Assembly (NCBI GenBank): GCA_964016885.1
Contig: OZ024742.1
Location: 173,352,001 to 173,416,000, forward strand
Reading direction: 5' to 3'
Source: Eledone cirrhosa
Taxonomy: Eukaryota
DNA length: 64,000 nucleotides
Within the stretch, counting starts at the first letter, position 1. The number at the start of each line of letters is the position of its first letter. Shown piece by piece: positions 453 to 55,631 of this stretch. The notes under the pieces are model-generated. The model saw nothing but the letters and a program-made list of their open reading frames with translations, was not told where the DNA came from and did no database searches. Position numbers and translations under genes: made by a program.

Positions 453-477
453 TATTATTATTATTATTATTATTATT
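453..477. repeat. (TAT)n microsatellite, insertion target
   Basis: Perfect TAT repeats between two element 5' ends. Confidence 0.95.
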
Positions 478-690
478 GAATGCCATGGTTGACGGAGGCT
501 CGGCTCTGTAAGGTATAGTAATTTTTAACCGTTAAAACAATTGTAAATTGTTTAAAACTTGAACCAAATTGTTGATAAAGACACCCTCCTCCTCGTGAGA
601 GGGGTCTTTCTGTCCGTTATTTGGCCCTTCGGGGTTAAATAACCAGTTATTGGGGTTTTGTACCCAAAATTTCATTTTAAACAAAAAAAC

Positions 691-2787
691 ATGGCTACGA
701 AAAAGAAATTTCATACGTCACTCCCACTCATTCCGTCTTCTTCTTCCTCAATCATCACTACAGCAGAGAGAAGATTGTCTCTCTCCCTCCCTTCTTTAAA
801 TGTGTCTCTCTCCCTCCCTTCTCTTTCGCAAGCGATGAAAGAAAAGAAAAGTCTCGTGCAAAGCGTGCAAGGTTTCTCCACGACGACGACGACAGCGACG
901 AAACAGGTGTGCGGGAAATACGAAAACCCAGTTCATTCGTCTGACGTCAGGAATAATAGCAGTAGCAGCCGTAATAACAACAGCAACAGTGACAATGAAA
1001 ACAACAGTAGCAGCCGCAACAGCATCACCAGCAGCATAAACAACAACAGCATTAACAGCAGCAACACCAACAACAACCACAGCAACAGCGGCGGAGGCAG
1101 TAGTCGTAGTACCTGCAGCAACAACAAAAGTACCAGCAGCTCTGACGACAACAACAACAGCAGAGAAAAACCAATCTCATTTGCAGGTATTGCGAAAAAC
1201 TTGGAAACAATCCTCATAACAAATGAGGAATTAGAGGAAGCGAAGAAGATGGTGACAAAGAACGGACACCGAGCAATCTGCAAGGCAGCGAAAAATTTTT
1301 TCGAAACCCAAGAGCACTGTACGGTCACGTACCGTACAGTAAGTACAAAATCCCGTAGGGTGGAAAGAGCCACAGAGGCCCAAATACAAAAAGCCTTGGG
1401 GTCTGTGTGGCAGAGGAAAACGCACATCACCCGAGGCAAAAAATACGCCACCGTAGACGTACTTTTTGCCACACCCCAGGAGGCAAAGGCCCAATCAGTA
1501 GTGACACTAAGGAGCGAGGAAATGGTGTTGGTGCCCTCCTACTGCGGGCAAAAAATTGTGAGGGTCAAACTGACCCACGTCCCCCCCGGAATGACCCCTT
1601 CTTGGCTGGCCGCGTCTGTCCTCGTCGGAATCGAGGACAAAACAACTGTACTGCAAGTACAGAAAAAAGTAAGAGAAGATTGGGTCGGCTCCTCCATTGA
1701 GATGCTAATCCAAACCAACCAGGAGTGCATCGAAGCTATCCCGGATGTGATAGACTTCGATAACGGCACTCAACTGCCCATAAGTGTTGAGGGCAAACGC
1801 CCGAAATGCTTTCGCTGTGGATCGAAGACTCACCTCAGGGCCTTCTGCAACGAGAAGACCCTGAGAAAGGAGAAAACCCCCCTCCTTCCGAATCCGGCTC
1901 CACGGCTACCAGCAACAGGACAAGCAGCAACCAGGAACGATAGGTCCGTGGCACCCATACCCACTCCACGGAAATCAAAGACAGCAGCAGCAGTGGAAAT
2001 ATTAACAACAACAACAGCAATACCAAATGCAGCTGCAACAGAGACTCCAGTGCAAACATCACCAACAACAACAAGTGAAAGAGTGGAGCTGGTACCCCTC
2101 CCCGACCTTACAGAATCAGACATGGAGTGTGAGGTGGGAGAGGGATGGCAAAAGGTCGCAAGAAGGCACAAACGCAGAAGCAGCGCATCGTCGCCTTTGA
2201 AAAGGGAGGAAAGAAATGAGAAAAGGGTAAAGTCTACTGCAAAGAGACCCACAGCAGCAACACCACCAACACCATCACCACCCACACCAGCACCACCATC
2301 ACCACCGGCGACAACCCCACCGCCAACAACACCTTCAACACCACCACCACAAGCACCAACATCGCAAACACAACAACAAAACACACACACCCAGCAACAA
2401 CGACAAGAAAATAGCAGAACCACACCCCACCCCCAGAAAAACAAATGCACGGCAATAAACACACACAACAAGAAACTAATGACTTACATAATTGAACACA
2501 CAGACATTTCACAACAGGACTACATAATACCAGCACCAATCAAAACGCCAACTAACATAAGACTGCTAAAAATAGCACAGAAACAATACACAAACATTAA
2601 AACGAAATTCCCCAACGCAGTTGGTGATTTCTGGGACCTAGGAGGAACCATCAATCGAAGAGTATATTCAGACATTCTCTTAGAAGAGCCGACGACCAGC
2701 CGAAGGGACGATTCAACGGTCCCTTCACCAGACGATCAAGTGAAAAGGGATGTAAAAACCATCCCTCCTCTACCAAAAGTACGGTAA
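691..2787 (+). CDS. Tx1-like ORF1 (gag-like nucleic-acid-binding protein)
   Basis: Zinc knuckle CFRCGSKTHLRAFC, N/S-rich and P/T-rich low-complexity tracts, EGWQKVARR motif; first ATG at 691 (ORF track starts at TTG 658). Confidence 0.85.
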   Translation: MATKKKFHTSLPLIPSSSSSIITTAERRLSLSLPSLNVSLSLPSLSQAMKEKKSLVQSVQGFSTTTTTATKQVCGKYENPVHSSDVRNNSSSSRNNNSNSDNENNSSSRNSITSSINNNSINSSNTNNNHSNSGGGSSRSTCSNNKSTSSSDDNNNSREKPISFAGIAKNLETILITNEELEEAKKMVTKNGHRAICKAAKNFFETQEHCTVTYRTVSTKSRRVERATEAQIQKALGSVWQRKTHITRGKKYATVDVLFATPQEAKAQSVVTLRSEEMVLVPSYCGQKIVRVKLTHVPPGMTPSWLAASVLVGIEDKTTVLQVQKKVREDWVGSSIEMLIQTNQECIEAIPDVIDFDNGTQLPISVEGKRPKCFRCGSKTHLRAFCNEKTLRKEKTPLLPNPAPRLPATGQAATRNDRSVAPIPTPRKSKTAAAVEILTTTTAIPNAAATETPVQTSPTTTSERVELVPLPDLTESDMECEVGEGWQKVARRHKRRSSASSPLKREERNEKRVKSTAKRPTAATPPTPSPPTPAPPSPPATTPPPTTPSTPPPQAPTSQTQQQNTHTQQQRQENSRTTPHPQKNKCTAINTHNKKLMTYIIEHTDISQQDYIIPAPIKTPTNIRLLKIAQKQYTNIKTKFPNAVGDFWDLGGTINRRVYSDILLEEPTTSRRDDSTVPSPDDQVKRDVKTIPPLPKVR

Positions 2788-2822
2788 GTGGTCTTTCCCA
2801 TCTTTTCCACTCTATTTTAAAC

Positions 2823-5800
2823 ATGACCTCACTCAGAATAGGCAGCATAAATGCGCGTGGCTTGGGGTCGTCATGGAAGCAGGGTCAGCTGCTCAACGAC
2901 CTCAGGTCACTAAACATAGATGTAGTGGCCATCAGCGAGACCAGAATCTCCGAAGCACGGGCCTTCGCACCGATCTTCGGCGGCTACGATGTGTACGCAT
3001 CTCCCAGCCGTCCTGGATCGGGTGGAGGAGTTGCTGTGCTTTTTCGGAGAGGTTTGGATCTCGCCATACGGGCTATCTTCCTGGACCCAGAGGGTAAGCT
3101 GGTGGTGCTGGACGTGACCAGCGGAGACGGGCAAGCTTTCAGGCTAGTGGCCGTCTATGCCCCGACAGGAGCAGGGCGGCCTGATTTCTTCCGGCGTCTG
3201 GAGACCTTCCTTGGAACGTCCCGCTCTTTAGTGTTAGTGGGCGACTGGAACGGGATCTTAGATGCACGCTGGGACTGTGTGGGATTAGCGGATAGGGGTG
3301 GAGGGTGCAAGAGCCTCACCAACCTGCTCAGGCGTTTTGAACTGTCTGACAGGTACCGATTGGATTTCCCGAATGTGCCAATGTGGACTTGGACAAACCG
3401 CATAGGGTCATCCAGATCATATCTAGATAGAGTATTTTGTAGGGAAATAGATAGGTCTAGCATAGGCTGTCCACAATTCAAGATAGTCAGCTACACGGAC
3501 CACAAATTCGTGACCTGTGTGCTTGACTTAGATAGGCTTCATAGACGAGGACCCGGCTACTGGAAGCTAAACGCGTCCTTACCAGCGCGCAAGGCCTACA
3601 GAGACCGGATTAGCGAACTAGTTAAGCGGGCGTTGACGGGGGCCATCGTCAACAACAAGTGGTGGTTTGCTCTGAAAAGAGCGATTAGAATAGAATCGAT
3701 TAGGTTTAGTAAGGCTTTAGCAATAGAGAAAAATAGAGCAGAGGGAGAACTAGTTAGAAAATTAGACGAGGCGCTTAGCAAAGGCATTGCGACCGACGTG
3801 CTTGCGGCGAAATTGGCCCTTGACCAATTCTTCAATGCAAAGCACGAAGGCTGCGTTGTCAGAGCTAGGGTGCGTGCTCTCAGACACGAGGGGACGAAAG
3901 CCGTTCAATGGGCCAGAGTGGCGGAGGCGCGTCGTGGCAACAAAGCCACGATCCGGTCTTTGGTGGACCACGACGGGCGCATGCTACTCGATCCCGGGCA
4001 AATGTGTGAAGCTTTTCAGCGACACTTCGCTCAGCTGTTCGGGGGAAGTGGGGGGCCGGGTAGAGGGATGGACTTTAGTGTCTACCTCGACGGACTGCCG
4101 CGGCTCTCGGCCACTGAGGCGAAGTGTTGCGAAAAGCCGATAACAGCCGCTGAAGTACGGGAGGCAATGACTGGCTGCACAAGGGGTAAATCGCCTGGTT
4201 TGGATGGTCTGCCCTATGAACTTTACGTACAGATGCCAGACTTGTTCGGAGGCCTATTGGCGGACGTCTACTGCAACTGGCAACAGAACGGGAGAATTCC
4301 CAGTTCTGTGAGCCGAGGAGCGTTGGCACTGCTGAGAAAGGATCCGAACAAGGGGGATAACATAGACAATTTCCGGCCCATAACTCTGCTAAACACAGAG
4401 TTTAAGATTTTGGCCAAGGTGCTAGCAAAGAGGTTGGCGCTTGTCGTTGGTGGTCTGGTGGGAGAGGCGCAGACATGCGCCATTCCCGACATATCCATCC
4501 ACGACAACCTCCACCTCATGCGATACATCGTAGAGAGGGTAGCTAGGGAACCTGGCACGGGTGGGTCCTTGATCAATTTAGATCAGTCGAAAGCTTTCGA
4601 TAGGGTCGACCATCGTTACCTAGCGGCAGTCCTGAGGGCGGCTGGCTTTGGGCCCGTCTTCAGAGGCTGGATCGCTGCCATGCACAGCGACATCTGCTCT
4701 GTGGTGAGAGTGAACGGTCACCTGTCGGAACCGTTCAACATCATGCGCTCGGTCCGCCAAGGATGTCCCCTCTCGTCCCTCTTGTACGTATTGACTCTCG
4801 AGCCATTACTGCACAAACTGGAGACGTTGAGGGGAGTCCCGCGCGAACTAGGATGCGGAAGATCCGTGTCAGCATATGCGGACGATGTCACCGTAGTGGT
4901 GTCGAACGCCAAACACATCGAGGCGATCGGCACTACACTAAGAGAATACGAAGCGGTGACAGGAGCAATGATCAACCAGGAAAAGTCAGTGGGCCTGCAG
5001 CTCGGCACCTGGAGAGGCAGGTCCATGCCGTCCAACAGCGTCGTCGGGCGCTGGACGGACGGACCGGTTAAATTGCTAGGGGTCTGGTTCGGTCCGGACC
5101 TCCAGACGGACAAAAACTGGGACGAGGTGACGAGCAGGGTGGCTTCTCTCACCCAGAAATGGGCGGAGAGGAAGCTATCCCTGAAAGGTCGAGCGGAGGT
5201 GGCTAACGCGTACATCGCGTCTGTCATCTGCTACCGCCTAACCGTCGTACCTTGTCCTAAGCCTCGCCTGACTGCGCTGGAGCGTTTGCTCTTTCGCTTT
5301 TTGTGGAAGGGACGTGCTCCGATGGTCAGGCGGTCCATCTGTTGTCAACACCCGCTACGTGGAGGGCTGGGCATGCCGTGGCTGATGATGCGCAGGCACG
5401 CGCTCAGGCTACGACATCTCCACCTTTTCCTCGACGGTGATCAGGTGTGGTCGCCGTTTGCTAGACGCGTTTTTCCCCAGCTCGTTTCCTTGACGGAGCT
5501 GCAGTCCTGGGTCAAGCGAAGACCGAGAGGGAGCGCCTGGAGACTGGAATGTCTTCAGGCGCTCACAGCCCTCGACCAATCGGGCAATGTGATCGGTGGA
5601 AACTCCACCTCGGCGTTCTATAGAGGATTAGTGGAGGGGAAGAGCGACGACGTACTTGGGGAAACTCTAGGCGTCGACGAAAATCAACTAGCCAATCTCT
5701 TCGGAAGAACTTTCGGGCCAGGGCCTATGGACAACTTCCAGAAATCTCTGGCCTGGCAGTGCTACCGAGGAGCCTTGCCAGTTCGGGATAAACTCTACAG

Positions 5801-6242
5801 GCATGGAGGTGCCGTCAGCCGGGCATGTCCGAGATGCGCGCAGGGCGACGAAACCGTCCTGCACGCACTCGTCCAGTGTCCGAAAATTGCTGACTTGTGG
5901 GTTTATGTCGAACACCTGCTGTCGCGTTTAGGACGGATCCAGCTATCATCTGAGTCTATCGTGAGGATTGCCCCGCCCTCCTCCTTTAGCCGGGAAGGGC
6001 AGGCAGTTTTTATCTGTCTGGTGGCCATGGCGAAAGAGATAGTATGGTGGACACGTTTGAAAGGGCTGAAGACGAGCACTTACCTCTTCGGTGATGCTCT
6101 GATTGACTTTTTCAAATTTCATTTGAAAAGGAAAATCAGAGTAGAGAAGGAAGTGCTCTCTTCCCAGCATTTTGTTGAAAGATGGGTGAGAGAAGCAAGA
6201 ATGGCCCGAGTGAATGGGCCGACTCTGAGTATATATCTGTAA
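2823..6242 (+). CDS. Tx1-like ORF2: AP endonuclease + reverse transcriptase + C-terminal zinc finger
   Basis: APE motifs SINARGL, ISETR, VYAP, GDWN, YLD, TDH; RT motifs KSPGLDG, FRPITLLN, DQSKAFD, VRQGCPLS, YADD; C-terminal CPRC-x8-H-x4-C. Confidence 0.95.
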   Translation: MTSLRIGSINARGLGSSWKQGQLLNDLRSLNIDVVAISETRISEARAFAPIFGGYDVYASPSRPGSGGGVAVLFRRGLDLAIRAIFLDPEGKLVVLDVTSGDGQAFRLVAVYAPTGAGRPDFFRRLETFLGTSRSLVLVGDWNGILDARWDCVGLADRGGGCKSLTNLLRRFELSDRYRLDFPNVPMWTWTNRIGSSRSYLDRVFCREIDRSSIGCPQFKIVSYTDHKFVTCVLDLDRLHRRGPGYWKLNASLPARKAYRDRISELVKRALTGAIVNNKWWFALKRAIRIESIRFSKALAIEKNRAEGELVRKLDEALSKGIATDVLAAKLALDQFFNAKHEGCVVRARVRALRHEGTKAVQWARVAEARRGNKATIRSLVDHDGRMLLDPGQMCEAFQRHFAQLFGGSGGPGRGMDFSVYLDGLPRLSATEAKCCEKPITAAEVREAMTGCTRGKSPGLDGLPYELYVQMPDLFGGLLADVYCNWQQNGRIPSSVSRGALALLRKDPNKGDNIDNFRPITLLNTEFKILAKVLAKRLALVVGGLVGEAQTCAIPDISIHDNLHLMRYIVERVAREPGTGGSLINLDQSKAFDRVDHRYLAAVLRAAGFGPVFRGWIAAMHSDICSVVRVNGHLSEPFNIMRSVRQGCPLSSLLYVLTLEPLLHKLETLRGVPRELGCGRSVSAYADDVTVVVSNAKHIEAIGTTLREYEAVTGAMINQEKSVGLQLGTWRGRSMPSNSVVGRWTDGPVKLLGVWFGPDLQTDKNWDEVTSRVASLTQKWAERKLSLKGRAEVANAYIASVICYRLTVVPCPKPRLTALERLLFRFLWKGRAPMVRRSICCQHPLRGGLGMPWLMMRRHALRLRHLHLFLDGDQVWSPFARRVFPQLVSLTELQSWVKRRPRGSAWRLECLQALTALDQSGNVIGGNSTSAFYRGLVEGKSDDVLGETLGVDENQLANLFGRTFGPGPMDNFQKSLAWQCYRGALPVRDKLYRHGGAVSRACPRCAQGDETVLHALVQCPKIADLWVYVEHLLSRLGRIQLSSESIVRIAPPSSFSREGQAVFICLVAMAKEIVWWTRLKGLKTSTYLFGDALIDFFKFHLKRKIRVEKEVLSSQHFVERWVREARMARVNGPTLSIYL

Positions 6243-6502
6243 ACTAAAGGTGGAAAACTGGGAGAGGGCACTTGCCTTGGTGGTCAGGGTCATTGTGGCT
6301 TTTTACTTGGCTTTCTCCACAAATGTCCCTCCGAAGTCTCCCCCCTATTGGGGAATTTTTCATTGTTATTTTCATTGTTATTTTTGTTACATCCTCTGTT
6401 TTTGTTTTTTTACACGCAGAAATGCCCATTTGTACCGTCCTGCATTGTCCTGCACTGTCCTTAATGTCTACTTTATATAAACCCTTGTGGTTAATAAAGA
6501 AA

Positions 6503-6504
<2 letters not shown>

Positions 6505-6537
<33 letters not shown>

Positions 6538-6549
6538 GTTATTGTTATT
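6505..6549. repeat. (ATT)n microsatellite between two element 3' ends
   Basis: ATT repeats with GTT variants. Confidence 0.95.
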
Positions 6550-9500
6550 CCTTGAATCTCAGTCATTGATGTTGGTTAACTGGAAAGTCCGTTGGATTGA
6601 ATATCAAGCCACTACCTGCAGCCTCAGATATTCAGGACGTATCGGAGGGTTCTTGCCGTTCCAAGCAAGCATGCCTTTTGAAGCGTTCCAAAAAGCGTGA
6701 AGGGGCCGATTTTCTTTAACCATCCCTGGAAACCTTTGGAGATAGTCCCCAGTGCGCCTATGACAATCGGGATCACTTTGACTTCATGGCAGTTCCAAAT
6801 CCTTTTCACCTCCCACTTTAGGTCCTGGTATCGGTCAATTTTCTCCCTCTCCTTCTCTTGCACTCTCGTGTCGAACGGGCAGGCCACATCCACAATCAGG
6901 CACGATCTTTTTTCTTTGTCCACAACCACCAGGTCAGGTCTATTGTGTTCCAGTTTTTTGTCCGTCTGTATCCTAAAATCCCACAGCACCTTCACCTGAT
7001 TGTTCTCCATCACCGCCTCTGGCCTATGCTCATACCATTTCTCAGAATGTGGTAGATTGTTTACTTTGCACAGGTGCCAGTGGATCACCCTGCCCATCAC
7101 ATCGTGTCTCCAGCCCTTATAGTGGGTCTGGGCTAGGTGTTTACACTCGGACACAATGTGAGCCACAGTCTCCTCTCTCTCTCCACAGATCCTGCACAGT
7201 GGGCTAGCCTCCTCCTTGTAGATATGGTGCTTCAACCACTTCGTTTTGAGGGCCTGCTCCTGCGCAGCCATTAGCATTCCTTCTGTAGCCTTTTTGAGGT
7301 CTCCTCTTCTCAACCAGTTCCATGTCTGTGGATCTCTAAATTCAGTTTTCTCAAAGAAGGTACTATGAAGGGATTTTCCCTTAAGGCTGCTCTTCCTCCT
7401 TGATGTTATTTCCTCCTTGGGTATCCCCTGGCCTACTGTCCCCTCCTTCAGTACAGCTCTGAGCATTGGCTCCTTACTATAGGTCACGTATTTGTATAGG
7501 TTGTTTTTCTCCATCTGAACACAGTCCTCTATGCTGATAAGACCTCTTCCACCCTCAGATCTCCTTAGGTAGAGTCTATCGACATCACTCCTCTTGTGGA
7601 ACATGTTGTAGATAGTCAATAGCTTCCTAGTCTTCCTATCCATTTCTTTTTGTTCAGCAACATTCCATCTCAGAATTCCCGCACTGTACCTAATAATAGA
7701 CACAGCTCGGGAATTTACTGCGCTTATGGCATTTCTGCTGTTCAGATGTGACTTCAATACGCTCCTTACTCTCCGAATGTATTCAGTTCTTAACAATTCC
7801 TTCATTTTTTTGTTCTTTATGCCATCAGCCTCCAGAACGCCCAAATACTTGTATCCTTCCTCAGAGTCAATTTCCTTTATCATCTCACCTGTTGGTATCT
7901 GGATCCCGTTACTTCTGCTCAACCTACCCCTCCTCATCACAATGACTCCACATTTACCAATACCAAACTGCATACATATATCACTGCTGAAAATACGGAC
8001 AGTGTCAACAAGCACATCCAACTCCTTCTCACTTTTCCCGAAGAGCTTAAGGTCGTCCATGAAGAGGAGGTGATTGATGGTAAGCTCTCCCCTTCCCAAC
8101 TTGTATCCTGCTCTCACTTTTCGCAGCATAATGGTCAAGGGCATCAGGGCAAGGACAAACAACAGAGGGGACAGGCTATCTCCCTGGAAGATACCTCTCT
8201 TGATCTTCACGCTTCCCAAGGATACTCCAGTTGATGTCAACTCTGTCTCCCAGGACCCCATACTCCTGCCCAGCAACTGTCTGATGTTATCTGCCACCCT
8301 GAAGATCTCCAGGCTTTTGGTGATCCAGGAATGAGGCACCATGTCAAATGCCTTTCTGTAGTCTATCCATCCCATGGCAAGATCAGTGTGTCTCCTCCTG
8401 CAATTCCCCATTACCATCTTATCAATAAGCAACTGGTCCTTTGTACCACGTGACTTCTTTCGGCATCCTTTCTGTTCGTCCGGCAACAAGTTGTTTGTGT
8501 GGAGGTGATGGCAGATTTCCTCAGACACAATGCTCGTCAACAGTTTCCACATTACGGGCAGACATGTGATAGGTCTATAGTTGGTGACATCATTACCCTT
8601 GATTTGGTCTTTCATTATCAGAACTGTGGTACCTTTTGTCAACCACTCTGGCACCTCACCCGACACCAAGCAGTCATTGAACATGGCCGTCAGCTTCGGG
8701 TGGAGGGATGTTAAATGTTTAATCCAATACCCCTGCACACCATCTGGGCCTGGTGATTTCCAGTTGGTTAGTTTTTTGGCTTGCCCCTTAAGAGTTTCAA
8801 CTGTGATACTCAAATCAGTCTGTTGCTGTGCCTGCTCACCGATCTCCCTCTGTACTGTCTCAATCCACCCTGCCTGGGCATTGTGTCTAACATCCCGCTC
8901 CCATATTCCTCTCCAGAATGTTTTAGCTTGTTCCGCCCCAGGGATCAAGTCGGTGCCTCTTTCTTTCCCCTCAAGCTGTCCAAACAGCATCTTCTGGTTG
9001 TTGTCGAACATGCGGTTCTGTTTATACTGACTGACTCTGTTCTCGTATCGCCTGATTTTGGCACTCTTTGCTACAATGCGTTGCTTCAATTCCTCTATGA
9101 TAATATTTAGCTTTTTACTCCTAGTTTTGTATTTTATTTCCAGTCTATTTTTAGTGCCTATGTTTTTTAGTGTCCCATTCAGTAGTGACTCAAGCTTTCC
9201 TATGTCATTTCTCATTTCCCCGATTTGCCCACTCAGTCGCTTCTTCCACCACGGCTCTGCTCTTTCTTGTCTGTTGTTTCCTCTCGCTTTTATACCAAGT
9301 AGTTTCCTCACCGTATTTGCTGTTGCTTTGAGGATATTGTTGCACTGGTGAAGACTCCTCGCCTCAAGGTATGGGATGACTTTGTTTACCTTAGCTGTTG
9401 TTTCTTTTAACTTTTTCCTGTCTACAAATCTTAGGTTCATAGGTCTCCCACTATCATTGTTCAACTCATCTACCACTAAATTTAGGATGTCAACCGAATC

Positions 9501-10063
9501 TTGTCCTAGCCCGTCAGCATTCATCTCCTCAGTGGCCGTATCTCTGTTCCAGGTATTATTTATCTCAGTATTCAGATCATTGTCTGCTTCGGGTGGTTCC
9601 TTCGCTCTCAGGACCTCCTCACCTTCATTTCCCGCCGGCTCGCTTGTCTGGCATACTACACCCGCCATCTCCAAGCCATTCTCTCTGCTCAGTTCCTCCA
9701 GTTCCAGCTCGCTTATCCACCCATTAGTTCTTATTACCCGAGCCTGCCCGGCCAATTTTTGTTCATCTAATTTAAATAAACCAATCTCGTTCCAGATGTT
9801 ATGCATCCGTCTCCTGTAGCCCCTCTCCTTGGGGTTACTTTTCAGGTAGCATTGCATAACAGTTCTATTCAATTCTTTCGTCCAGTTGGTTCTGGCCCCT
9901 TTCCTTCTTCTTCTTCCTCCAACATCAGCAGTATTTCGTTGACAGTCAGGTTCCTGCTGCTGAGCCAGGGGGCACCTGTTGGGTGAGAGTCTGTCACATG
10001 ACGTTCTAGTCTCCATTTCACCGTTATTCGAACTGTTTATGTTCGATATTTAAACACTCTTAT
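6550..10063 (-). mobile_element. R4/Dong-like RLE retrotransposon, copy 1 (intact ORF, 5' UTR truncated)
   Basis: Single ORF; short 3' UTR; near-identical to copy 2 but homology stops about 45 nt upstream of the ATG, at (TAT)n. Confidence 0.9.
6624..10016 (-). CDS. RT + restriction-like endonuclease (R4/Dong-like), 1130 aa
   Basis: N-terminal WTKELNRTVMQCY; RT WKSPGPDG, NYRPITCL, DYRKAFD, GIFQGDSLSP, FMDDLK; CCHC CRICGEREETVAHIVSEC; RHD; RLE RPDLVVVD..IVDV..K..RY. Confidence 0.95.
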   Translation of the reverse strand: METRTSCDRLSPNRCPLAQQQEPDCQRNTADVGGRRRRKGARTNWTKELNRTVMQCYLKSNPKERGYRRRMHNIWNEIGLFKLDEQKLAGQARVIRTNGWISELELEELSRENGLEMAGVVCQTSEPAGNEGEEVLRAKEPPEADNDLNTEINNTWNRDTATEEMNADGLGQDSVDILNLVVDELNNDSGRPMNLRFVDRKKLKETTAKVNKVIPYLEARSLHQCNNILKATANTVRKLLGIKARGNNRQERAEPWWKKRLSGQIGEMRNDIGKLESLLNGTLKNIGTKNRLEIKYKTRSKKLNIIIEELKQRIVAKSAKIRRYENRVSQYKQNRMFDNNQKMLFGQLEGKERGTDLIPGAEQAKTFWRGIWERDVRHNAQAGWIETVQREIGEQAQQQTDLSITVETLKGQAKKLTNWKSPGPDGVQGYWIKHLTSLHPKLTAMFNDCLVSGEVPEWLTKGTTVLIMKDQIKGNDVTNYRPITCLPVMWKLLTSIVSEEICHHLHTNNLLPDEQKGCRKKSRGTKDQLLIDKMVMGNCRRRHTDLAMGWIDYRKAFDMVPHSWITKSLEIFRVADNIRQLLGRSMGSWETELTSTGVSLGSVKIKRGIFQGDSLSPLLFVLALMPLTIMLRKVRAGYKLGRGELTINHLLFMDDLKLFGKSEKELDVLVDTVRIFSSDICMQFGIGKCGVIVMRRGRLSRSNGIQIPTGEMIKEIDSEEGYKYLGVLEADGIKNKKMKELLRTEYIRRVRSVLKSHLNSRNAISAVNSRAVSIIRYSAGILRWNVAEQKEMDRKTRKLLTIYNMFHKRSDVDRLYLRRSEGGRGLISIEDCVQMEKNNLYKYVTYSKEPMLRAVLKEGTVGQGIPKEEITSRRKSSLKGKSLHSTFFEKTEFRDPQTWNWLRRGDLKKATEGMLMAAQEQALKTKWLKHHIYKEEASPLCRICGEREETVAHIVSECKHLAQTHYKGWRHDVMGRVIHWHLCKVNNLPHSEKWYEHRPEAVMENNQVKVLWDFRIQTDKKLEHNRPDLVVVDKEKRSCLIVDVACPFDTRVQEKEREKIDRYQDLKWEVKRIWNCHEVKVIPIVIGALGTISKGFQGWLKKIGPFTLFGTLQKACLLGTARTLRYVLNI

Positions 10064-10094
10064 TATTATTATTATTATTATTATTGTTGTTATT
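10061..10094. repeat. (TAT)n microsatellite spacer
   Basis: TAT repeats between R4/Dong copies 1 and 2. Confidence 0.95.
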
Positions 10095-13000
10095 CCTTGA
10101 ATCTCAGTCATTGTTGTTGGTTAACTGGAAAGTCCGTTGGATTGAATATCAAGCCACTACCTGCAGCCTCAGATATTCAGGACGTATCGGAGGGTTCTTG
10201 CTGTTCCAAGCAAGCATGCCTTTTGAAGCGTTCCAAAAAGCGTGAAGGGGCCGATTTTCTTTAACCATCCCTGGAAACCTTTGGAGATAGTCCCCAGTGC
10301 GCCTATGACAATCGGGATCACTTTGACTTCATGGCAGTTCCAAATCCTTTTCACCTCCCACTTTAGGTCCTGGTATCGGTTAATTTTCTCCCTCTCCTTC
10401 TCTTGCACTCTCGTGTCGAACGGGCAGGCCACATCCACAATCAGACACGATCTTTTTTCTTTGTCCACAACCACCAGGTCAGGTCTATTGTGTTCCAGTT
10501 TTTTGTCCGTCTGTATCCTAAAATCCCACAGCACCTTCACCTGATTGTTCTCCATCACCGCCTCTGGCCTATGCTCATACCATTTCTCAGATTGTGGTAA
10601 ATTGTTTACTTTGCACAGGTGCCAGTGGATCACCCTGCCCATCACATCGTGTCTCCAGCCCTTATAGTGGGTCTGGGCTAGGTGTTTACACTCGGACACA
10701 ATGTGAGCCACAGTCTCCTCTCTCTCTCCACAGATCCTGCACAGTGGGCTAGCCTCCTCCGTGTAGATATAGTGCTTCAACCACTTCGTTTTGAGGGCTT
10801 GCTCCTGCGCAGCCATTAGCATTCCTTCTGTAGCCTTTTTGAGGTCTCCTCTTCTCAACCAATTCCATGTCTGTGGATCTCTAAATTCAGTTTTCTCAAA
10901 GAAGGTTCTATGAAGGGATTTTCCCTTAAGGCTGCTCTTCCTCCTTGATGTTATTTCCTCCTTGGACATCCCCTGGCCTACTGTCCCCTCCTTCAGTACA
11001 GTTCTGAGCATTGGCTCCTTACTATAGGTCACGTATTTGTATAGGTTGTTTTTCTCCATCTGAACACAGTCCTCTATGCTGATAAGACCTCTTCCACCCT
11101 CAGATCTCCTTAGGTAGAGTCTATCGACATCACTCCTCTTGTGGAACATGTTGTAGATAGTCAATAGCTTCCTAGTCTTCCTATCCATTTCTTTTTGTTC
11201 AGCAACATTCCATCTCAGAATTCCCGCACTGTACCTAATAATAGACACAGCTCGGGAATTTACTGCGCTTATGGCATTTCTGCTGTTCAGATGTGACTTC
11301 AATACTTCCTTACTCTCCGAATGTATTCAGTTCTTAACAATTCCTTCATTGTTTTGTTCTTTATGCCATCAGCCTCCAGAACTCCCAAATACTTGTATCC
11401 TTCCTCAGAGTCAATTTCCTTTATCATCTCACCTGTTGGTATCTGGATCCCGTTACTTCTGCTCAACCTACCCCTCTTCATCACAATGACTCCACATTTA
11501 CCAATACCAAACTGCATACATATATCACTGCTGAAAATACGGACAGTGTCAACAAGCACATCCAACTCCTTCTCACTTTTCCCGAAGAGCTTAAGATCGT
11601 CCATGAAGAGGAGGTGATTGATGGTAAGCTCTCCCCTTCCCAACTTGTATCCTGTTCTCACTTTTCGCAGCATAATGGTCAAGGGCATCAGGGCAAGGAC
11701 AAACAACAGAGGGGACAGGCTATCTCCCTGGAAGATACCTCTCTTGATCTTCACGCTTCCCAAGGATACTCCAGTTGATGTCAACTCTGTCTCCCAGGAC
11801 CCCATACTCCTGCCTAGCAACTGTCTGATGTTATCTGCCACCCTGAAGATCTCCAGGCTTTTGGTGATCCAGGAATGAGGCACCATGTCAAATGCCTTTC
11901 TGTAGTCTATCCCTCCCATGGCAAGATCAGTGTGTCTCCTCCTGCAATTCCCCATTACCATCTTATCAATAAGTAACTGGTCCTTTGTACCACGTGACTT
12001 CTTTCGGCATCCTTTCTGTTCGTCCGCTAACAAGTTGTTTGTGTGGAGGTGATGGTAGATTTCCTCAGACACAATGCTCGTCAACAGTTTCCACATTACG
12101 GACAGACATGTGATAGGTCTATAGTTGGTAACATCATTACCCTTGATTCGGTCTTTCATTATCAGAACTGTGGTACCTTTTGTCAACCACTCTGGCACCT
12201 CACCCGACACCAAGCAGTCATTGAACATGGCCGACAGCTTCGGGTGGAGGGATGTTAAATGTTTAATCCAATACCCCTGCACACCATCTGGGCCTGGTGA
12301 TTTCCAGTTGGTTAGTTTTTTGGCCTGCCCCTTAAGAGTTTCAACTGTGATACTCAAATCAGTTTGTTGTTGTGCCTGCTCACCGATCTCCCTCTGTACT
12401 GTCTCAATCCACCCTGCCCGGGCATTGTGTCTAACATCCTGCTCCCATATTCCTCTCCAGAATGTTTTAGTTTGCTCCGCCCCAGGGATCAAGTCGTTGC
12501 CTCTTTCTTTCCCCTCAAGCTGTCCAAACAGCATCTTCTGGTTGTTGTCGAACATGCGGTTCAGTTTATACTGACTGACTCTGTTCTCGTATCGCCTGAT
12601 TTTTGCACTCTTTGCTACAATGCGTTGCTTCAGTTTCTCTATGATAATATTTAGCTTTTTCCTCCTAGTTTTGTATTTTATTTCCAGTCTATTTTTAGTG
12701 CCTATGTTTTTTAGTGTCCCATTCAGTAGTGACTAAAGCTTTCCTATGTCATTTCTCATTTCCCCGATTTGCCCACTCAGTGGTTTCTTCCACCACGGCT
12801 CTGCTCTTTCTTGTCTGTTGTTTCCTCTCGCTTTTATACCAAGTAGTTTCCTCACCGTATTTGCTGTTGCTTTGAGGATATTGTTGCACTGGTGAAGGCT
12901 CCTCGCCTCAAGGTATGGGATGACTTTGTTTACCTTAGCTGTTGTTTCTTTTAACTTTTTCCTGTCTACAAATCTTAGGTTCATAGGTCTCCCACTATCA

Positions 13001-13882
13001 TTGTTCAATTCATCTACCACTAAATTTAAGATGTCAACCGAATCTTGTCCTAGCCCGTCAGCTTTCATCTCCTCAGTAGCCGTATCTCTGTTCCAGGTAT
13101 TATTTATCTCAGTATTCAGATCATTGTCTGCTTCGGGTGGTTCCTCCGTTCTCAGGACCTCTTCACCTTCATTTCCCACTGGCTCGCTTGTCTGACATAC
13201 TACACCCGCCATCTCCAAGCCATTCTCTCTGCTCAGTTCCTCCAGTTCCAGCTCGCTTATCCATCCATTAGTTCTTATTACCCGAGCCTGCCCGGCCAAT
13301 TTGTGTTCATCTAATTTAAATAAACCAATCTCGTTCCAGATGTTATGCATCCGTCTCCTGTAGCCGCTCTCCTTGGGGTTACTTTTCAGGTAACATTGCA
13401 TAACAGTTCTATTCAATTCTTTCGTCCAGTTGGTTCTGGCCCCTTTCCTTCTTCTCCTTCCTCCAACATCAGCAGTATTTGTTTGACAGTCAGGTTCCTG
13501 CTGCTGAGCCAGGGGGCACCTGTTGGGTGAGAGTCTGTCACATGACGTTCTAGTCTCCATTTCACCGTTATTCGAACTGTTTATGTTCGATATTTAAACA
13601 CTCTTATCGAGGATTGGCGAATGTATGGTTACATATCCATCTGTGGATCCGCCATTCCACTTGGCCCTTGTGTGGCATTATCACCACGCTGTATACGAAC
13701 ACACGTAAACAAACAAACACACAGGCAGAAAGGGCCCCAAAAATGAATAAGCATAAGTTTCATTGTAACGTAGTGTTCGAATGTCTGACTTAGTTTTTGT
13801 TTTTTAAGTTTTAGTTTCCCCCCCCCTCTTCTCTGTCCGTCCGCCTGCTTCTCTCTTCATTCTTATTTTCTTTACGTTTTGG

Positions 13883-13918
<36 letters not shown>

Positions 13919-14620
13919 TTTTTCTCTGTTTGTTTTTCTCGTTTTTTGCTGTTATTGCTGTGTTGCTTTGGTTTTGTTGTTTGTTTTTTCTTTTTTCTTT
14001 TGAGTCTATCTATATATTTTGATGCCTTCCTCTTTTTTTAGCAGTAGGGATACTATAATGTGGTGGCAGCAGCCACCTGAAAGAAGTGGGAGACTGGCGG
14101 CGGCAGCGATACTGAGACAGTGGTGGTGGTGATGTCGATACCGATGCAGTGGTGGTGGTGATGTGGCCGTATTACTGTAGTGATGGTGCTGTAGCGGTGG
14201 TAGCAGTGAAGGAGTGAAGGGGTGGTGGCGGCGGTGATGGGATAATGGTTGTAATGATGGCCGTAGTGAGCGGTGGTGGTTTAGTGTACACAGGTGATAG
14301 GGTGGGCGGTGTATCTAGTTTCTGGTGTTGGTGAGTTTGGCTTTTCTATATAGTGTAGACAGAGGAGGGGGGGGTTCTTCTTCCATTTATAGCCATTTTC
14401 TTTTTTGGATATACAGTGTACAATACAAAGTTGAATATTTGAATATTTGAGCCTTATAACAATATATTTTGGGTCCGAATTTTTTGGGGCTCAAGCCGGG
14501 TGCTTTACGTAGCATTTGTACTAAGAGTTGTTATTTCACAAATGATTTAAATATGTTAAAAATTCAAAACTTACGGGAGCGATTTCATGACCTCCGTCAC
14601 CTCGTGCGTCTTCTTCCCTA
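10095..14620 (-). mobile_element. R4/Dong-like retrotransposon, copy 2 (full length, about 1.06 kb 5' UTR, ORF disrupted)
   Basis: Near-identical to copy 1 over the ORF and 3' UTR; extends to 14620 where (TAT)n resumes. Confidence 0.9.
10169..13560 (-). pseudogene. Disrupted RT-RLE ORF of copy 2
   Basis: GAG->TAG stop at 12733-12735 and a 1-nt deletion near 11306 (aatacttcc vs aatacgctcc in copy 1) split it into 275, 418 and 377 aa ORFs. Confidence 0.9.
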
Positions 14621-14662: not shown

Positions 14663-14664
<2 letters not shown>

Positions 14665-14674
14665 AATAATAAAC

Positions 14675-14774
14675 ATATTTACACGCACAAAACCGACATC
14701 GTACATTCCTGTACCGTCCTGTGCCGTCTGTAATGTTTTTCTTGATGTCAGCCCTTGTGGCCAATAAAGAAATC
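14675..14774 (+). mobile_element. Severely 5'-truncated Tx1-like element (3' UTR only)
   Basis: Aligns with 6408-6504: tttacacgca, tgtaccgtcctg, taatgt, cccttgtgg, aataaagaaatc, followed by (ATT)n. Confidence 0.85.
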
Positions 14775-14790
14775 ATTATTGTTATTATTA

Positions 14791-14857: not shown

Positions 14858-17800
14858 AGTTGCATTTATCTTGCTTTATGTTCATACGAGTTATCACCAA
14901 GTCACAACCAGTGACCTCAAGAGACAACAAGGTCCGCCATGTTCAAGAAAGAACATACATACTCACACATGCATCTTTAGTGTTTAGACTTGTGATGTAC
15001 CTATATTGACAGAATCTTCCTTAGTATATGGGCAGTTCCCATTAGTACTATCTTTTGTATTTCTCCTATACGCGGGTTTCCTGGGATTTGCGATAAGTAA
15101 TCATTAGACCCCTTAGGTATCATTCCCAGAGCGCCTACAACCGCTGGTATTGTTTTAGTTCTCAATTTCCACATTTTTCCAATTTCTATCTCCAGGTCCT
15201 TATACTTGCTCAATTTTTCAAATGTTTTTATAGATACATTCTTGTCTATTGGAACAGACATATCAATTAGCAGGCATACCCTCTTTTTAAAGTCCTTCAA
15301 TATTATATCAGGTCTATTTGCATTTATTTTTCGGTCTGTTTGGATGCTAAAGTTCCACAAGATTGAGATGTGATCTTTTTCAAGTATGGAAGGTGTTTGA
15401 TGCTCCCACCAATTCTTTTGATGGGGCAGGTCAAAATGCTTACACATTATCCAATGTATGTATTGTGCAGCTCTGTCATGCCTGTTTAGGTATTCGGTTG
15501 GAGCTATAGGATTGCACATTGAAATTATATGGTCAATGGTCTCTGGTTGTTTTTTGCATTCACGGCATAATGCGCTGCATCCATTTTTTATTATGTTGGC
15601 TTGGTAATATTTTGTTGGCAGACACTGATCTTGTGCTGATATAATCAGTCCTTCAATCTCCGATTTCAGTCCAGAGGATGCCAACCACTGATGGGTTGAA
15701 GTTTTGTCAACATCAGGATTGTTAGCTCGCTCTGGGTATTTTCCACACAGAGGCTTTTCTTGCCATTTCTTAACCAGTTTCTGTAGCAGTTCTTTCTTTG
15801 CAGTTACTTTTACCTGCTTTGCTTTTTCTGTGTTTTCCATTTCAGCAGTAAATGGGACTTCTGAAATTTGTAGTCCATTATTGTATCTTTGTGCATCTTT
15901 TGTAATGGAATATGATCTTTTGATGCTTTCGTGTTTCAAAACGAGTTTGATCATCCAATCATGTGATTCCCTTAGATATGTAGATAATCCAATTGTTGCA
16001 GTTTTCAACGCAATGTCTAACTGGATTAACCCACGTCCTCCTTCTTTCCTAGGGAGATATATTCTATCTATATCTGCCTTAGGGTGATGCATTCTGTGCA
16101 TGGTTAAGAATTTTCGAATTTTTGTATCGAGCCTACCGATCTCTGTGCTTGACCAGTTGATGACATTGTAACTGTAGGTTACTACTGGTATGGCAAGCGT
16201 GTTTATGGCATCGATCCTATTCCTTGCATTCAATTCCGTTCTTAAGATTGCTCTTAGTCTGCGGTAACATTCCTTCCTTATCCTTTCCCTCATTGTCGAG
16301 TACTTGATTCCGTCTCCTTCACAAACACCTAGATATTTGTAAGTTGTTTCTTGATCAAGTTCTCTTATCACGTTCCCCCGATCAAGATTAATGTCTGAAC
16401 TCTTCAGCAGCTTTCTTCTGGTGAACGTTGCTTTGGCGCATTTATCTAGTCCAAACTCTATTTTAATGCTATCACTGAACTGCTCCAGAGTGGATAATAG
16501 CCCTTGCAATTGTTCATCATTTTTTGCAAATAGTTTCAGATCATCCATGTAGAACAAGTGATTAATGGTTTTGTCATAGACTTTATATCCATGTTTTGTT
16601 TCATTGAGCATTTTACTTAATGGTATAAGTGCGATGCAGAATAAAAGCGGTGATAAAGAGTCACCCTGAACAATTCCACAATTAATATTAACTTCTCCAG
16701 CTTCCAGTGATTTTTTTCCACTATTCAAAAGGAGTGTCGTTTTCCATGTCTTCATACTGAATGACAAAAACCTCCTGACAACGGGGGATATTTTGAAAAT
16801 CTCTAAACATTTTTCAATCCAACTGTGTGGCAAACTATCGAATGCTTTTTTATAATCTATCCAAGCAATCGATAGATTTTTGTGTCTATTATGACAATCT
16901 TCCAGTATCATTTTGTTAACCAGAAGCTGATCCTTACAGCCATATGAGCCTCGTTTACACCCCTTCTGCTCAATGGGAAATAGGTCATTTGTTATCAGGT
17001 GGTCATATGTGTATTCAGTTAGGACTGATGTTAAAATGTTATACATTGTGGTCAAGCAAGTTATCGGTCTGTAATTTTGGGGATTGTTTGTCTCATGATA
17101 CTTCGGAAGCAGGAATGTAATGCTGTTAAATAGCCATGATGGTATCTTTTCTGGCTCCTTAACTATTTCATTGTAAAGTTGGGCTAACAGCTCATGAGAC
17201 TCTGTGAAGGCATTTATCCTAAAGTTTTGTATTTTGTCTTTTCCTGGGGATTTCCATTTGCTGGTTTTTCTTAGAGCCAAGCGCAACTGTTCAACTGTTA
17301 TGTTTTACCATATTTGTTCCTCAAGGTGAGCTGTATCTTTCATTTGTCTGTCTATCCATGGGCATGTATGTTATGAACCTTTTCTCCGGCCCAGATCTTT
17401 TCCCAGAATTCTTGCACTTCCTCCTTGGGTGGTATTGATTTAGCAGTTATTGTTGACTTACCAAGTTTTCTGTAGAAGTTTCTTTGGTTGTTTTTGAACA
17501 TATTATTGTCCTTATAGAATCTAGATCGTTTTTCAAAGCGCCTTATACGAGCAGCTTTGGCCGACACTTTTTGCTTGATTATTTCTATCAGCATGTCTAT
17601 GTCACATGTTGATTTTATACTGTACTTTTTTTTCAATTTTTTCAATTTAGTTTGTTTAACATGTTCACGTACTTTATAGTTTGTTAAAATTTATATGTCA
17701 GATCGGAGAAGGTTTATTTGGCGATTGATGTTCTCTTGCCAATTAGATTTCTTATGGGAATTCCTTTGTTTTCTCATCTTCACTCTACATAAGTGAGTGG

Positions 17801-18815
17801 TGACTTTAGCCGATGCATAACAGAGATGATTTAAATCAGTAATGCTTAGTTTGTTTGTGATGATAATGTGTTTGAGAATTATGTTAGTCTTGTGTATTAT
17901 CTTTTGGTTCTGTTTGGAGTTCTGGATCTTAGGGAGGGTGTCTGGTTGCCCCATGTCAGATTCTTTCATTTTCATCCATTCGATCATAATTTCATCCTTC
18001 AAGTTGGCAAGTTCATTCTCATTCATTTCTTTATCATTTACGATCTCATTATTTTCATTTGGAGTTTCATCTTGAGCATGCACTCCCTCCACTTTTTCGA
18101 TCCTTTCTTTAATTTGTTCTGTTGCCAGTGATTCCGTCCCAACCCTGGGATTCGAAGTGTTACAATTTACCTCGTTTTCACTGACACGTGTTTCATTTTC
18201 CCTTCGCTGACTTTGTGCTAATAGCTTGATCTGATCAATTTCTATATCAGTTAGTAACTTTTTTCTTACAATATTTCTTCGTATATTGGCTAGTTTGTTA
18301 CTGTCAATATAGCCTCTGTTTTCGGGATGTTTCTTTTTCCAGTTAATATATGTCTGTTCTGTATTCGATGTATTTGATGGGTAGTACATGGCAGTGTAGA
18401 AAGCCTCAAGGACTTCTTTATTATCTTCCCTTGACCATTTTTCTCTCTTTTTCTTTGGATTTCTTGGTGGTGAGCATGGAGGGCCAACAGTAGGAGTATT
18501 CCGGTTATGGGAGGTCTCCAGCTCCGAAGTGATGGGAAGGTTAGAACCATTAGCTGATTTTTCGACCCCAGTCTGGTTCCTCTCTGAGGGACGCGGCCCT
18601 TTTTTACCCGGGTGACGGCAGATCCGGTATGAGATTTTATCATTAGACATTTACTTTATTTTGTCGCGTGTTATCCTTATCCGCCAAGGGGTTATCATTT
18701 CGTGTTACCACTTCTAGAACGAGTGTCAACCAAGACTAGCGGGGTCGTTCTCCCCTAGAGACACGGCTATTCCCCGCCGGCCGCCATCCCGGTATTTCTT
18801 GGTCACGGGGTTTTA
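14857..18815 (-). mobile_element. Divergent R4/Dong-like retrotransposon, copy 3 (decayed; 5' boundary uncertain, may reach about 19545)
   Basis: Same domain order as copies 1 and 2; 3' UTR abuts (ATT)n; 19482-19545 resembles the copy-2 5' UTR at 14308-14360. Confidence 0.85.
15001..18650 (-). pseudogene. Frameshifted RT-RLE ORF of copy 3
   Basis: 319 + 97 + 761 aa pieces: WSREDNKEVLEAFY, WKSPGKD, DYKKAFD, QGDSLSP, YMDDLK, CRECKKQPETIDHIISMC, RHD, RPDIILKD. Confidence 0.9.
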
Positions 18816-18890: not shown

Positions 18891-18942
18891 TAATAATTGT
18901 CTCCACTCCAGGCACAAGGCCAGCAATCACCCAGTGCATTAC
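18891..18942 (-). mobile_element. 3' tail fragment of the tRNA-derived SINE
   Basis: taataattgtctccactccaggcacaaggccagcaatcacccagtgcattac matches the SINE tail at 23500-23551. Confidence 0.75.
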
Positions 18943-22560: not shown

Positions 22561-22914
22561 ATTCATTCAACTATGCTGACGTCCATCTGATATATAATAA
22601 ACGAATAGCTTACATTCTAACATGAATCATGCTTATATGTTCGGTTTCCCTTTAACCAAAGATTTATTGTTAGTTGAGTGTTGCATTACGTGACATCATG
22701 TGGCAATTTGTTCTTTAAATATTTTGAAATGTGACGTAAGTTATAAAGCGATACTTTATTTCATTAAGGTAAAAACCTGATATTAAACGATTTTGAATTA
22801 TAATTATCGGATAGCAAATACTGTCATGTAATTTCTCATCGTTGTTAGAGAAGTGAAAACAAGACACATCATCCTTAATAACGGTTTCTACTATAGGAAC
22901 GAGACCATACATTT

Positions 22915-23695
22915 GAAGGGCATGGGAAAGTCGATTAAATCGACCCAGTGCATTACTGGTGCTTTATTTTATCAACTCCGTAAGGATAAATAGCAAAGCT
23001 AACGTCATACATAAAGGGCCTAACTCTATGCTGCAAAGCATGATTTTCGACGCTCCACTGATTCTGCCAACCCAACGTTAATAATGATTTCCAGTATAGG
23101 CACAAGGCTAGTTATTTGCGGGGAGGGGAAAGTCGATTAAATCGACCTCAGTGTGTTACTGGTACTTTATTTTATCGACCCCGTAAGGATGAAAGATAAA
23201 GTTAACCTCGGCGGGATTTGAACTCAGATCATAAAGGGCTGCAACTCTATGCTGCAAAGCATAGTGTCCGTCTCTCTACTGATACTGCCAATCCACCGCC
23301 CTAACCCATCCTTAATAATGATTTCTTCTATAGGCACAAGGCCAGCATATTTTGAGGGAGGTGAAAATCGATTAAATTGAACTCAGTTCGTTATTGGTAC
23401 TTTATTTAATTGACCACGTAAGGATCAAAGGCAAAGCTAACGTCGGCGGGAATGGTACTCAGAACGTAAGGCGCCCGCAATTCTATGTTGACCCATTCTT
23501 AATAATTGTTTCTACTTCAGGCACAAGGCCAGCAATACCCAGTGCATTACTGGTACTTTATTTTATCGACCCAGTAAGGATGAAAGGCAGAGTTAACCTC
23601 GACGGGATTTGAACTCAGATCATAAAGGGACGTAACTATGCTGGAAAGCATGGCGTCCGACCCTCTACCGCTACTGCCAATCCATTCTTAATAAT
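22915..23695 (-). mobile_element. Cluster of four head-to-tail tRNA-derived SINEs
   Basis: On - strand: A-box-like TGGCAGTATCGG, B-box GAGTTCAAATCC, core gcctttcatccttacggggtcgataaaataaagtacc, tail ggccttgtgcc..gaaa(t/c)(c/a)attatt; units at about 22915-23075, 23080-23301, 23314-23490 and 23507-23681. Confidence 0.85.
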
Positions 23696-25486: not shown

Positions 25487-25672
25487 TGTTTCTACTTTAG
25501 GCACAAGGCCAGCATATACCCAGTGCATTACTAGTACTTTATTTTATCGACCCCGTAAGGATGAAAGGCAAAGTCAACCTCGGCGGGATTTGAACTCAGA
25601 TCGTAAAGGGACGTAACTATGCTTGAAAGCATGGCGTCCGACCCTCTACCGATACTGCCAATCCACCACCCT
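25487..25672 (-). mobile_element. Full-length tRNA-derived SINE with 18-bp TSD
   Basis: A/B boxes, core and tail present; TSD attatgatttcaaatact at 25469-25486 and 25678-25695. Confidence 0.9.
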
Positions 25673-40421: not shown

Positions 40422-41990
<1,569 letters not shown>

Positions 41991-42062
41991 ACTGGGTGTA
42001 ATATATATCGTTTCTGAATTTGATTAGCAAGATTTTCTATCTGAAAACGTGTGTTGAAACCG

Positions 42063-46226: not shown

Positions 46227-46281
46227 TTAATAGAATATAATATAATATTAGTTATAACTATTTTATACATAACTACTCAAT

Positions 46282-55559: not shown

Positions 55560-55627
<68 letters not shown>

Positions 55628-55631
<4 letters not shown>

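Follow-up and report, generated by a model that had tools for sequence, protein, structure and literature searches.

Features of the locus

The analysed stretch of DNA (64,000 nt; Eledone cirrhosa, assembly GCA_964016885.1, contig OZ024742.1, positions 173,352,001 to 173,416,000, forward strand) is referred to here as the window. It carries a full-length LINE of the L1/Tx1 group set between ATT runs, the 5′-truncated stub of a second subfamily of this group, LINEs which resemble Dong/R4, and nine copies of a SINE family, four of them arranged head to tail (Table 1).

Table 1. Elements of the window and their parts (positions are those of the 64,000 nt)
Positions	Strand	Feature	Remarks
1-477, 6550-14620, 14858-18650	-	Dong/R4-like LINEs	limits approximate
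454-477	+	(ATT)8 run, 5′ junction of the full-length Tx1 LINE	target DNA
478-6504	+	full-length L1/Tx1-group LINE, subfamily A	ORF1 and ORF2 open
691-2787	+	ORF1, 698 aa	single CX2CX4HX4C knuckle
2823-6242	+	ORF2, 1139 aa: AP-endonuclease, RT, C-terminal CCHC finger	Pfam PF03372, PF00078, PF13966
6480-6492	+	predicted Tx1-A terminal hairpin AACC-CTTGT-GGTT	minimum-energy fold; pair probability ~0.9 in 3′ UTR context
6493-6504	+	AATAAA hexamer and true element end GAAATC	end set by duplications in unique-site copies
6505-6549	+	(ATT)11 and degenerate units, target microsatellite	common to the 3′ end of an opposite-strand Dong/R4-like RLE-type LINE
14663-14774	+	5′-truncated Tx1 stub, subfamily B, between ATT runs	5′ limit approximate
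14751-14761	+	hairpin GCC-CTTGT-GGC of the subfamily B stub	
18898-18942	-	SINE 3′ stub	
22883-23077	-	degenerate long-type SINE	last copy of the array
23086-23305	-	long-type SINE in the tandem array	stem broken (AGC/GCC)
23320-23490	-	long-type SINE quoted in the initial annotation	second of four head-to-tail copies; hairpin GGC-CTTGT-GCC, end AGAAATC
23507-23684	-	short-type SINE	duplication ATTATTAAGAATGG on both sides
25487-25677	-	short-type SINE, A-box-like and B-box motifs	18-nt duplication AGTATTTGAAATCATAAT on both sides
45167-45259	+	5′-truncated SINE	ATTATCAT on both sides
46042-46228	-	short-type SINE	duplication ATTATATTCTATTA; stem broken (GGC/GAC)
49196-49399	-	old long-type SINE	duplication ATTCTAGTAA

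The Dong/R4-like LINEs, which are of the RLE type, share the ATT/AAT runs of the Tx1 element in opposite orientation, and two of their copies (6515-10063 and 10060-13607) lie in tandem and are 98% identical. Broken ORFs were found at 34915-39040 (-), 30718-32083 (+), 41667-42455 (+), and 57256-58221 (+). By eye, these four resemble Helitron Rep/helicase pieces, Penelope-like RT/GIY-YIG pieces, and a fragment of another LINE; a Pfam search with the ORF at 30718 gave no match. Comparison of the window with itself revealed inverted self-complementary segments at 44792-44979 and 55623-55859.

The Tx1 LINE and its relatives in the genome

The full-length LINE has the organization of the L1/Tx1 group, with two ORFs of which the second codes for an AP-endonuclease, an RT, and a C-terminal zinc finger. 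A Pfam search with ORF1 gave no match. ORF2 scores 328 bits against Xenopus Tx1 and 182 bits against LINE-1 ORF2p (PDB), and the nearest named homologue of the protein is from Argonauta hians (69%). In an RT tree computed without mammalian L1, the element falls into the L1/Tx1 group, the split from RTE, CR1, and Dong being supported by 96/97, and into a 100/100 clade made up of copies from its own genome (the label L301 may also denote a neighbouring array copy), Argonauta, and one further protein. The tree did not recover a branching order relative to Xenopus Tx1, and "Tx1" here stands for the L1/Tx1 group.

The end pattern of the window type, with ATTATT next, has 4,993 exact matches in the 3.0-Gb genome, and a pattern with a different sixth base, not otherwise identical to the first, has 263. 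All 30 retrieved loci with Tx1 ends align with the window element, one of them over merely 50 nt. Copies often reside in long ATT runs and in head-to-tail arrays. In array L295 (C1:56169500-56179400), near-identical full-length copies of subfamily A follow each other in units of 6,036 nt with 8-9 ATT units between them, and the 5′ junction of the window element, (ATT)n-GAATGCCATGG, recurs twice. Spacings which resemble those of this array were seen at C1:55.42-55.45 Mb.

A sister clade ends at (TATC)n, and its end pattern has 11,253 matches (e.g., L236, L251, L252, L256, L260, and L263, with the match near base 1500 of each locus). When 29 such ends were checked, a Tx1 ORF2 end was found directly upstream of 15, another 12 had the same tail, and two had neither. 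In the RT tree, the clade is monophyletic (100/99) and sister to the ATT-type subfamily C. Because the TATC clade nests in this position, the ATT target looks ancestral. A further tree, which is based on partial C-terminal projections and in which some array labels possibly belong to a neighbouring copy, served for coarse grouping only. The TATC-clade endonuclease differs from that of the ATT families at the segment WTWxNRxG, which is presumably near the specificity loop.

The SINE family

The SINE copies are non-coding, about 190-225 nt long, and flanked by duplications. Their copy number is high: genome-wide, 193,136 sites match the SINE end plus ATTAT exactly. The head carries A-box-like and B-box motifs, judged by consensus patterns, and its tRNA-like look makes it a candidate tRNA-type head; an Rfam search with the SINE region gave no match at E values up to 1. 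The central domain may resemble Nin/Inv. 

The additional window copies listed in the initial annotation do exist. The copy that it quoted is a best-case minority form, as AGAAATC followed by ATTATT is found at 3 of 168 SINE ends and in one of the nine window copies, the majority end being AGAAACA. Three SINE probes had no match in four supplement files of PMC4758252, this being the portion of that source which was covered.

A LINE of the CR1 group (L265-L294; L119:4475-5950) has a hairpin-like end of its own, and its ATT tails have served as landing sites for the SINE (L272, L287, L290, and L291).

Insertion footprint

The three ends on which the initial annotation was built (6481-6510 and 14751-14780 on the plus strand, 23314-23343 on the minus strand) are exactly as quoted there. 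They had been described as sharing a 13-nt terminus. The letters match indeed, but only 7 nt belong to the elements and 6 nt are target DNA, with the duplication starting at ATTAT.

This follows from the position of the target-site duplications. Among random SINE copies, 25/55 have a duplication of 9-27 nt which begins immediately past GAAANN (null: mean 4.9 and maximum 10, n = 500). Where such copies deviate from ATTATT, the upstream copy of the duplication deviates identically in 10/13 cases (e.g., GTTAT, ACTAT, and AGTAT). In a larger, non-random set, a complex duplication was found for 50/169 copies (null 9-15), at offset 0 in 34, at offset 1 in 6, and at offsets 2-7 in 10; a pyrimidine precedes it in 31 of the 34 copies with offset 0. 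The window itself has an example in the SINE at 25487, where the duplication AGTATTTGAAATCATAAT begins directly after AGAAACA, so that the letters past this end are target DNA.

Tx1 junctions behave alike. At loci picked for a non-T sixth base, the duplication is in register in 9/19 (null 5.4; equalled in 1/500 shuffles), and in a cleaned set, from which junctions judged to be internal had been removed and which overlaps with the former, in 21/35 (null 14.6, maximum 19). Copy-specific Tx1 duplications of 13-18 nt are found at L206, L208, L214, L219, and L221.

ATTAT follows 45/61 random SINE copies, and 58/61 when one mismatch is allowed (0.28% expected per position), a count which is unbiased because ATT was left out of the search pattern. 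It is also found upstream, in 27/57 SINE copies and, within 25 nt, at 20/35 Tx1 junctions, against a background of 5.7%. Together with the ATT-spaced arrays, this marks the Tx1 insertions as target-specific.

Thus, both the SINE and Tx1 stop at (A)GAAANN, in most insertions without a tail that belongs to the element, and are followed directly by a duplication of about 9-22 bases, the boundary lying between a pyrimidine and ATTAT. As the target-site duplication starts right after AGAAANN, ATTATT is target DNA rather than an RNA tail. Since the duplications include ATTATT, the shared end is confined to about 26 nt, and ATTATT becomes independent evidence of a common nick. This shared insertion footprint is the best evidence for a SINE-Tx1 partnership. 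SINEs and Tx1 stubs were also found stacked at each other's ends in the same orientation (L068, L077).

Target strictness differs, with Tx1 nearly always preceding ATTATT and the SINE being looser. The proposal of a "microsatellite-targeting pair" is supported in part: Tx1 sits in ATT runs, but the sites of the SINE are mostly short. ATTATT follows in 32/61 SINE copies and four ATT units in 5/61, the share of four-unit sites among all ATTAT sites being 5.5%. The difference could reflect longer pairing of Tx1 transcripts with DNA, or the loss of long insertions outside of repeat nests.

Likeness of the 3′ ends

Random SINE copies (n = 57) came from evenly spaced genome samples of 590 kb in total, and a profile of their terminal 26 nt was used to score 26 LINE ends. 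All ten Tx1 ends (-0.2 to 13.6) score above all 16 CR1, RTE, and Dong/Hero-like ends (-24.9 to -2.7), which were delimited by eye; shuffle means are near -19. The non-Tx1 end L045 (-4.8) is slightly above its own shuffles, yet is devoid of the hairpin. A LINE family with a better match than Tx1, which the initial annotation had named as evidence against the pair, is not among the 16 ends scored.

Subfamilies B and C are identical to the SINE majority at 17/26 positions, above all of 150 shuffles. The window end of subfamily A, which had been presented as a match, is the worst among the Tx1 ends (14/26), and its score of -0.2 is below the maximum of 150 shuffles (3.6). The likeness between SINE and Tx1 exceeds chance. 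A shared 3′ terminus, as in stringent SINE-LINE pairs, is present, and the homology is limited to these ~26 nt, with 14-17 of 26 identical.

The TATC-type Tx1 ends score 1.3-9.5, as good as the ATT-type ends, so the choice of partner is not determined by the tail alone. The same follows from the genome-wide distribution of the SINE, as 193,136 ends precede ATTAT and none precedes (TATC)3 despite the likeness to the TATC-type tail.

A fuzzy motif search of the 590 kb resulted in 77 matches, 60 of them to the SINE, 5 to Tx1, and 12 to other sequences, which by eye proved to be one Tx1, four SINE remnants, and seven unrelated singles. No third family which shares the tail is among these matches, the 590 kb being 0.02% of the genome, in which rare families may be missed. 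Among 54 distant metagenome loci, mostly 21-33% identical, the tail was absent in 10/54 3′ ends inspected by eye.

The terminal hairpin

The Tx1 stems are AACC/GGTT in subfamily A, GCC/GGC in B, and GGCC/GGCC or GGCT in C. The TATC sister clade has GCC/GGC or TGCC/GGCA with the loops CCTGT, CTTGT, CTAGT, and CTGGT, and the SINE has (T)GGC/GCC(A or T). Over 17 representative ends, which were hand-picked and are related to each other, 85% of the cells are paired, more than in 500/500 shuffles and in all six slid controls. Three stem pairs carry two-sided changes, counted as 2-3 independent changes, and RNAalifold recovers the same inner three pairs. Conservation of a 3-bp stem across the Tx1 families and the SINE, as suggested by the alignment, rests on just these 2-3 independent changes. 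The initial annotation had stated that its three stems keep their pairing and had proposed that covariation be checked. Pairing is indeed kept across families, on the basis of these few independent events; within the window, however, the stem is broken in 3/9 SINE copies (46042, 23086, and 22883).

In the Tx1 3′ UTR, the hairpin has a computed probability of 0.67-0.99 in copies of A and A′ and in one copy each of B and C, of 0.3-0.8 in a second B copy, and of ~0 in L058 and L071. From such folding, the terminal hairpin is well supported in the LINE; for the SINE, it is a hypothesis. 

In most Tx1 families, the terminal hairpin is predicted to extend (6455-6504 in the window), with a U-rich segment pairing to AAUAAAGAAA. 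The extended stem would mask the poly(A) hexamer; its z-score is only -1.3.

Proposed mechanism and alternative explanations

It is likely that the SINE is copied by the ORF2 protein of an ATT-seeking Tx1 LINE, considering the common end of ~26 bases and the common footprint, and that copying takes the course outlined below. This agrees with the initial annotation, which had named a LINE of this group as the mobiliser, and is based on the tail likeness, the insertion signature, the exclusion of the CR1 group, and overlapping periods of activity. Divergence from the majority sequence has a median of 5.8% for the short SINE (n = 42) and 10.8% for the long SINE (n = 12). The medians of the Tx1 sets are 1.5% for young A, 3.4% for B, 4.5% for C, and 4.7% for older A; selection of these sets by exact patterns favours young copies, and medians are used because a few outliers (32-48%) are misaligned rows. 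The activity of the short SINE overlaps mostly with older A, B, and C. While the Tx1 lineage named previously is thus the likely one, these subfamilies, rather than the young A copy of the window, would be the more probable drivers. With this partnership, the probable driver of a SINE that exceeds 190,000 copies in this genome would be identified.

The Tx1 endonuclease would nick the bottom strand at 5′-ATAAT^R-3′, and ORF2 would grip the RNA via the short hairpin and a GAAA box located 6-8 bases downstream. SINE and Tx1 RNAs would run into their own flank, so that AUUAU past the end could pair with the nicked primer. Copying would begin at the fixed last base, excluding poly(A) or read-through from the new copy. 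An older ATT-type Tx1 may have been the source of the SINE tail, in which one stem pair would then have been inverted from C-G to G-C.

The avoidance of TATC sites is unexplained by the tail, and pairing of the read-through AUUAU with the nick would therefore be the simplest extra step. A two-key system, in which a hairpin of 3-4 bp and the GAAA box set the start while the target read-through must pair with the nick, is a plausible but tentative extension of this scheme. If true, it would imply that the elements leave no tail but inherit their target, and it would explain why a SINE of such abundance is found at ATT-type sites only, although the TATC families have nearly the same hairpin. Stringent recognition without a tail would then also have an example among the L1-clade elements of animals.

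Among the alternatives, one retains Tx1 as the mobiliser but has it recognise the SINE by the linear motif CUUGUG...GAAA together with the AUUAU read-through, the stem being of importance in the LINE RNA only. This accords with the predicted folds of whole SINE RNAs, in which the hairpin probability exceeds 0.5 in just 2/29 full copies (median ~0.03), and with the weak consensus stem (-2.5 kcal/mol). The hairpin is disfavoured because a conserved upstream helix, CCAGUAAU:AUUGCUGG, competes for its 5′ arm (e.g., 25487-25560 on the minus strand of the window; 73/119 short copies have this form of the helix). The helix is seen in both SINE types, even though the short type lacks ~25 nt between the arms, and its common variants ATTACTGG and ATTGTTGG still pair; helix and terminal hairpin could form a switch, according to these models. 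Nevertheless, we consider linear recognition unlikely, because the sole fixed stem difference between SINE and Tx1 is two-sided and preserves the pair, and because in the TATC families the loop bases vary while the stem pairing stays.

Still less likely, in our view, is a partner outside the sampled families, either a Tx1 family that is extinct or was not sampled or another LINE with a closer end, to which the sampled families would be mere relatives. Neither the stem GGC/GCC nor the spacer AAAGT of the SINE occurs in any sampled Tx1 family, the long SINE is older than most sampled Tx1 copies, and rare families would escape a sample of 590 kb. We reject a still existing, abundant Tx1 family with the exact SINE stem, as none was found genome-wide with a pattern lacking the G of the second pair; 404 Tx1-type ends have a non-G at this position, and the ones listed resemble point mutants. 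On the other hand, ATT-type Tx1 ends with the same footprint, several thousand to some tens of thousands in number, were active in the age range of the short SINE.

We regard it as very improbable that the SINE is mobilised by an ATT-tailed LINE of the CR1 group or by a Dong/R4-like LINE and that its likeness to Tx1 is due to chance or is a relic. For the CR1-group LINE, 8,509 exact ends with adjoining ATT units were counted, and Dong-like elements occupy the same ATT runs in the window. However, the ATT tail of the CR1-group LINE is element-encoded: a first-base duplication was found at 0/17 of its junctions and an upstream ATTAT at 1/17, far from the frequencies in the SINE and Tx1. Its tail score (-15.8) is at shuffle level, as are those of three Dong ends (-13 to -18.5), which in addition have the opposite orientation. 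Both were therefore rejected as partners.

That Tx1 and the SINE carry an RNA-encoded AUU repeat tail in place of poly(A), as proposed in the initial annotation, is scarcely credible, despite the ~97% of Tx1 ends followed by ATTATT and the one extra ATT unit before the duplication in a few SINE copies (offsets 3-4, 5/50), because 40/50 duplications begin at offset 0 or 1, deviating units are mirrored upstream, and Tx1 copies at unique sites behave alike.

Comparison with known systems

That SINEs borrow LINE tails and that Tx1 elements target microsatellites was known already. Octopus SINEs of the tRNA-derived type, OK, OR1, and OR2, were reportedly described by Ohshima and Okada in 1994. They are abundant and of tRNA type, and the present SINE is abundant as well, with a candidate tRNA-type head; in the passages considered, the literature citing them names no partner LINE. 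SINEs are reported to be among the major repeat classes in octopus genomes (PMC8967140, PMC13282606). A partner LINE of an octopus SINE, or a 3′ hairpin shared between a SINE and Tx1, was not found in the portions of the literature covered, and Repbase/Dfam or older SINE papers might name either. 

The Tx1 elements Kibi at (TC)n, Koshi at (TTC)n, and those of crocodilians at (TTCC)n/(TTTC)n insert into microsatellites, as does the present one, and no SINE partner is given for them in the relevant passages (PMC4494074, PMC3812793). The targets (ATT)n and (TATC)n are not among the Tx1 targets given there, where TAA is assigned to Dong.

SINE-LINE pairs with a shared 3′ end are reported for the L1 clade from maize and sorghum (ZmSINE2/3 and LINE1-1_ZM) and from an alga (SINEX-3_CR and L1-1_CR) (PMC3472496, PMC3747384). 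The monocot pair has a hairpin in which compensatory changes occur and the loop is conserved, followed 3′ of the stem by a conserved box; the candidate hairpin of the present pair is similar in these respects. The differences are that these pairs are from plants and algae, that the algal one ends with poly(A), and that target specificity is not described in the passages cited. According to the part of a review consulted here, just three SINEs have L1-clade tails, all from plants or algae, and it does not decide between a stringent and a relaxed enzyme at the base of the L1 clade (PMC3747384). The present genome would provide an animal test system, with a copy having intact ORF1 and ORF2, sister families with two targets and near-identical hairpins, and a natural passenger.

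The UnaL2/UnaSINE and ZfL2-1/ZfL2-2 systems, in which ORF2 recognises a 3′ stem-loop of the RNA (PMC4176376), may serve as a model for the proposed hairpin grip. They belong to the L2 clade, recognition was shown by experiment, and the repeat tail of UnaL2 is element-encoded, according to the passages cited (PMC3747384). No encoded 3′ repeat of this type is found here, the duplication beginning at the first base after the end; the present pair also differs in its stem of 3-4 bp, and by analogy only may its recognition be thought similar. For the read-through step, R1Bm and SART1Bm may be the model, where target-like sequence in the RNA may pair with the nicked strand and thereby determine where reverse transcription begins; unlike the present pair, these are of the R1 clade, have insect rDNA or telomere targets, and SART1Bm requires poly(A), as far as described in the cited part of PMC7265360.

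A further parallel is SINEU and Tx1-Mar of crocodilians, where mobilisation of a SINE by a target-specific Tx1 was inferred from shared targets and ages and where the target preference is weaker in some SINEU families (13-90%), as in the present SINE (PMC4494074). This single published Tx1-SINE link which we found rests on shared targets and not on a shared end: SINEU elements combine snRNA heads with poly(A) tails, and the passages cited report no LINE which shares the 3′ terminus of SINEU-1. In contrast, the present SINE has a tRNA-like-looking head, shares its 3′ end with Tx1, is tail-less, and has ATTAT as its target; shared insertion signature and overlapping activity, as in a stringent pair, are found together with the shared terminus.
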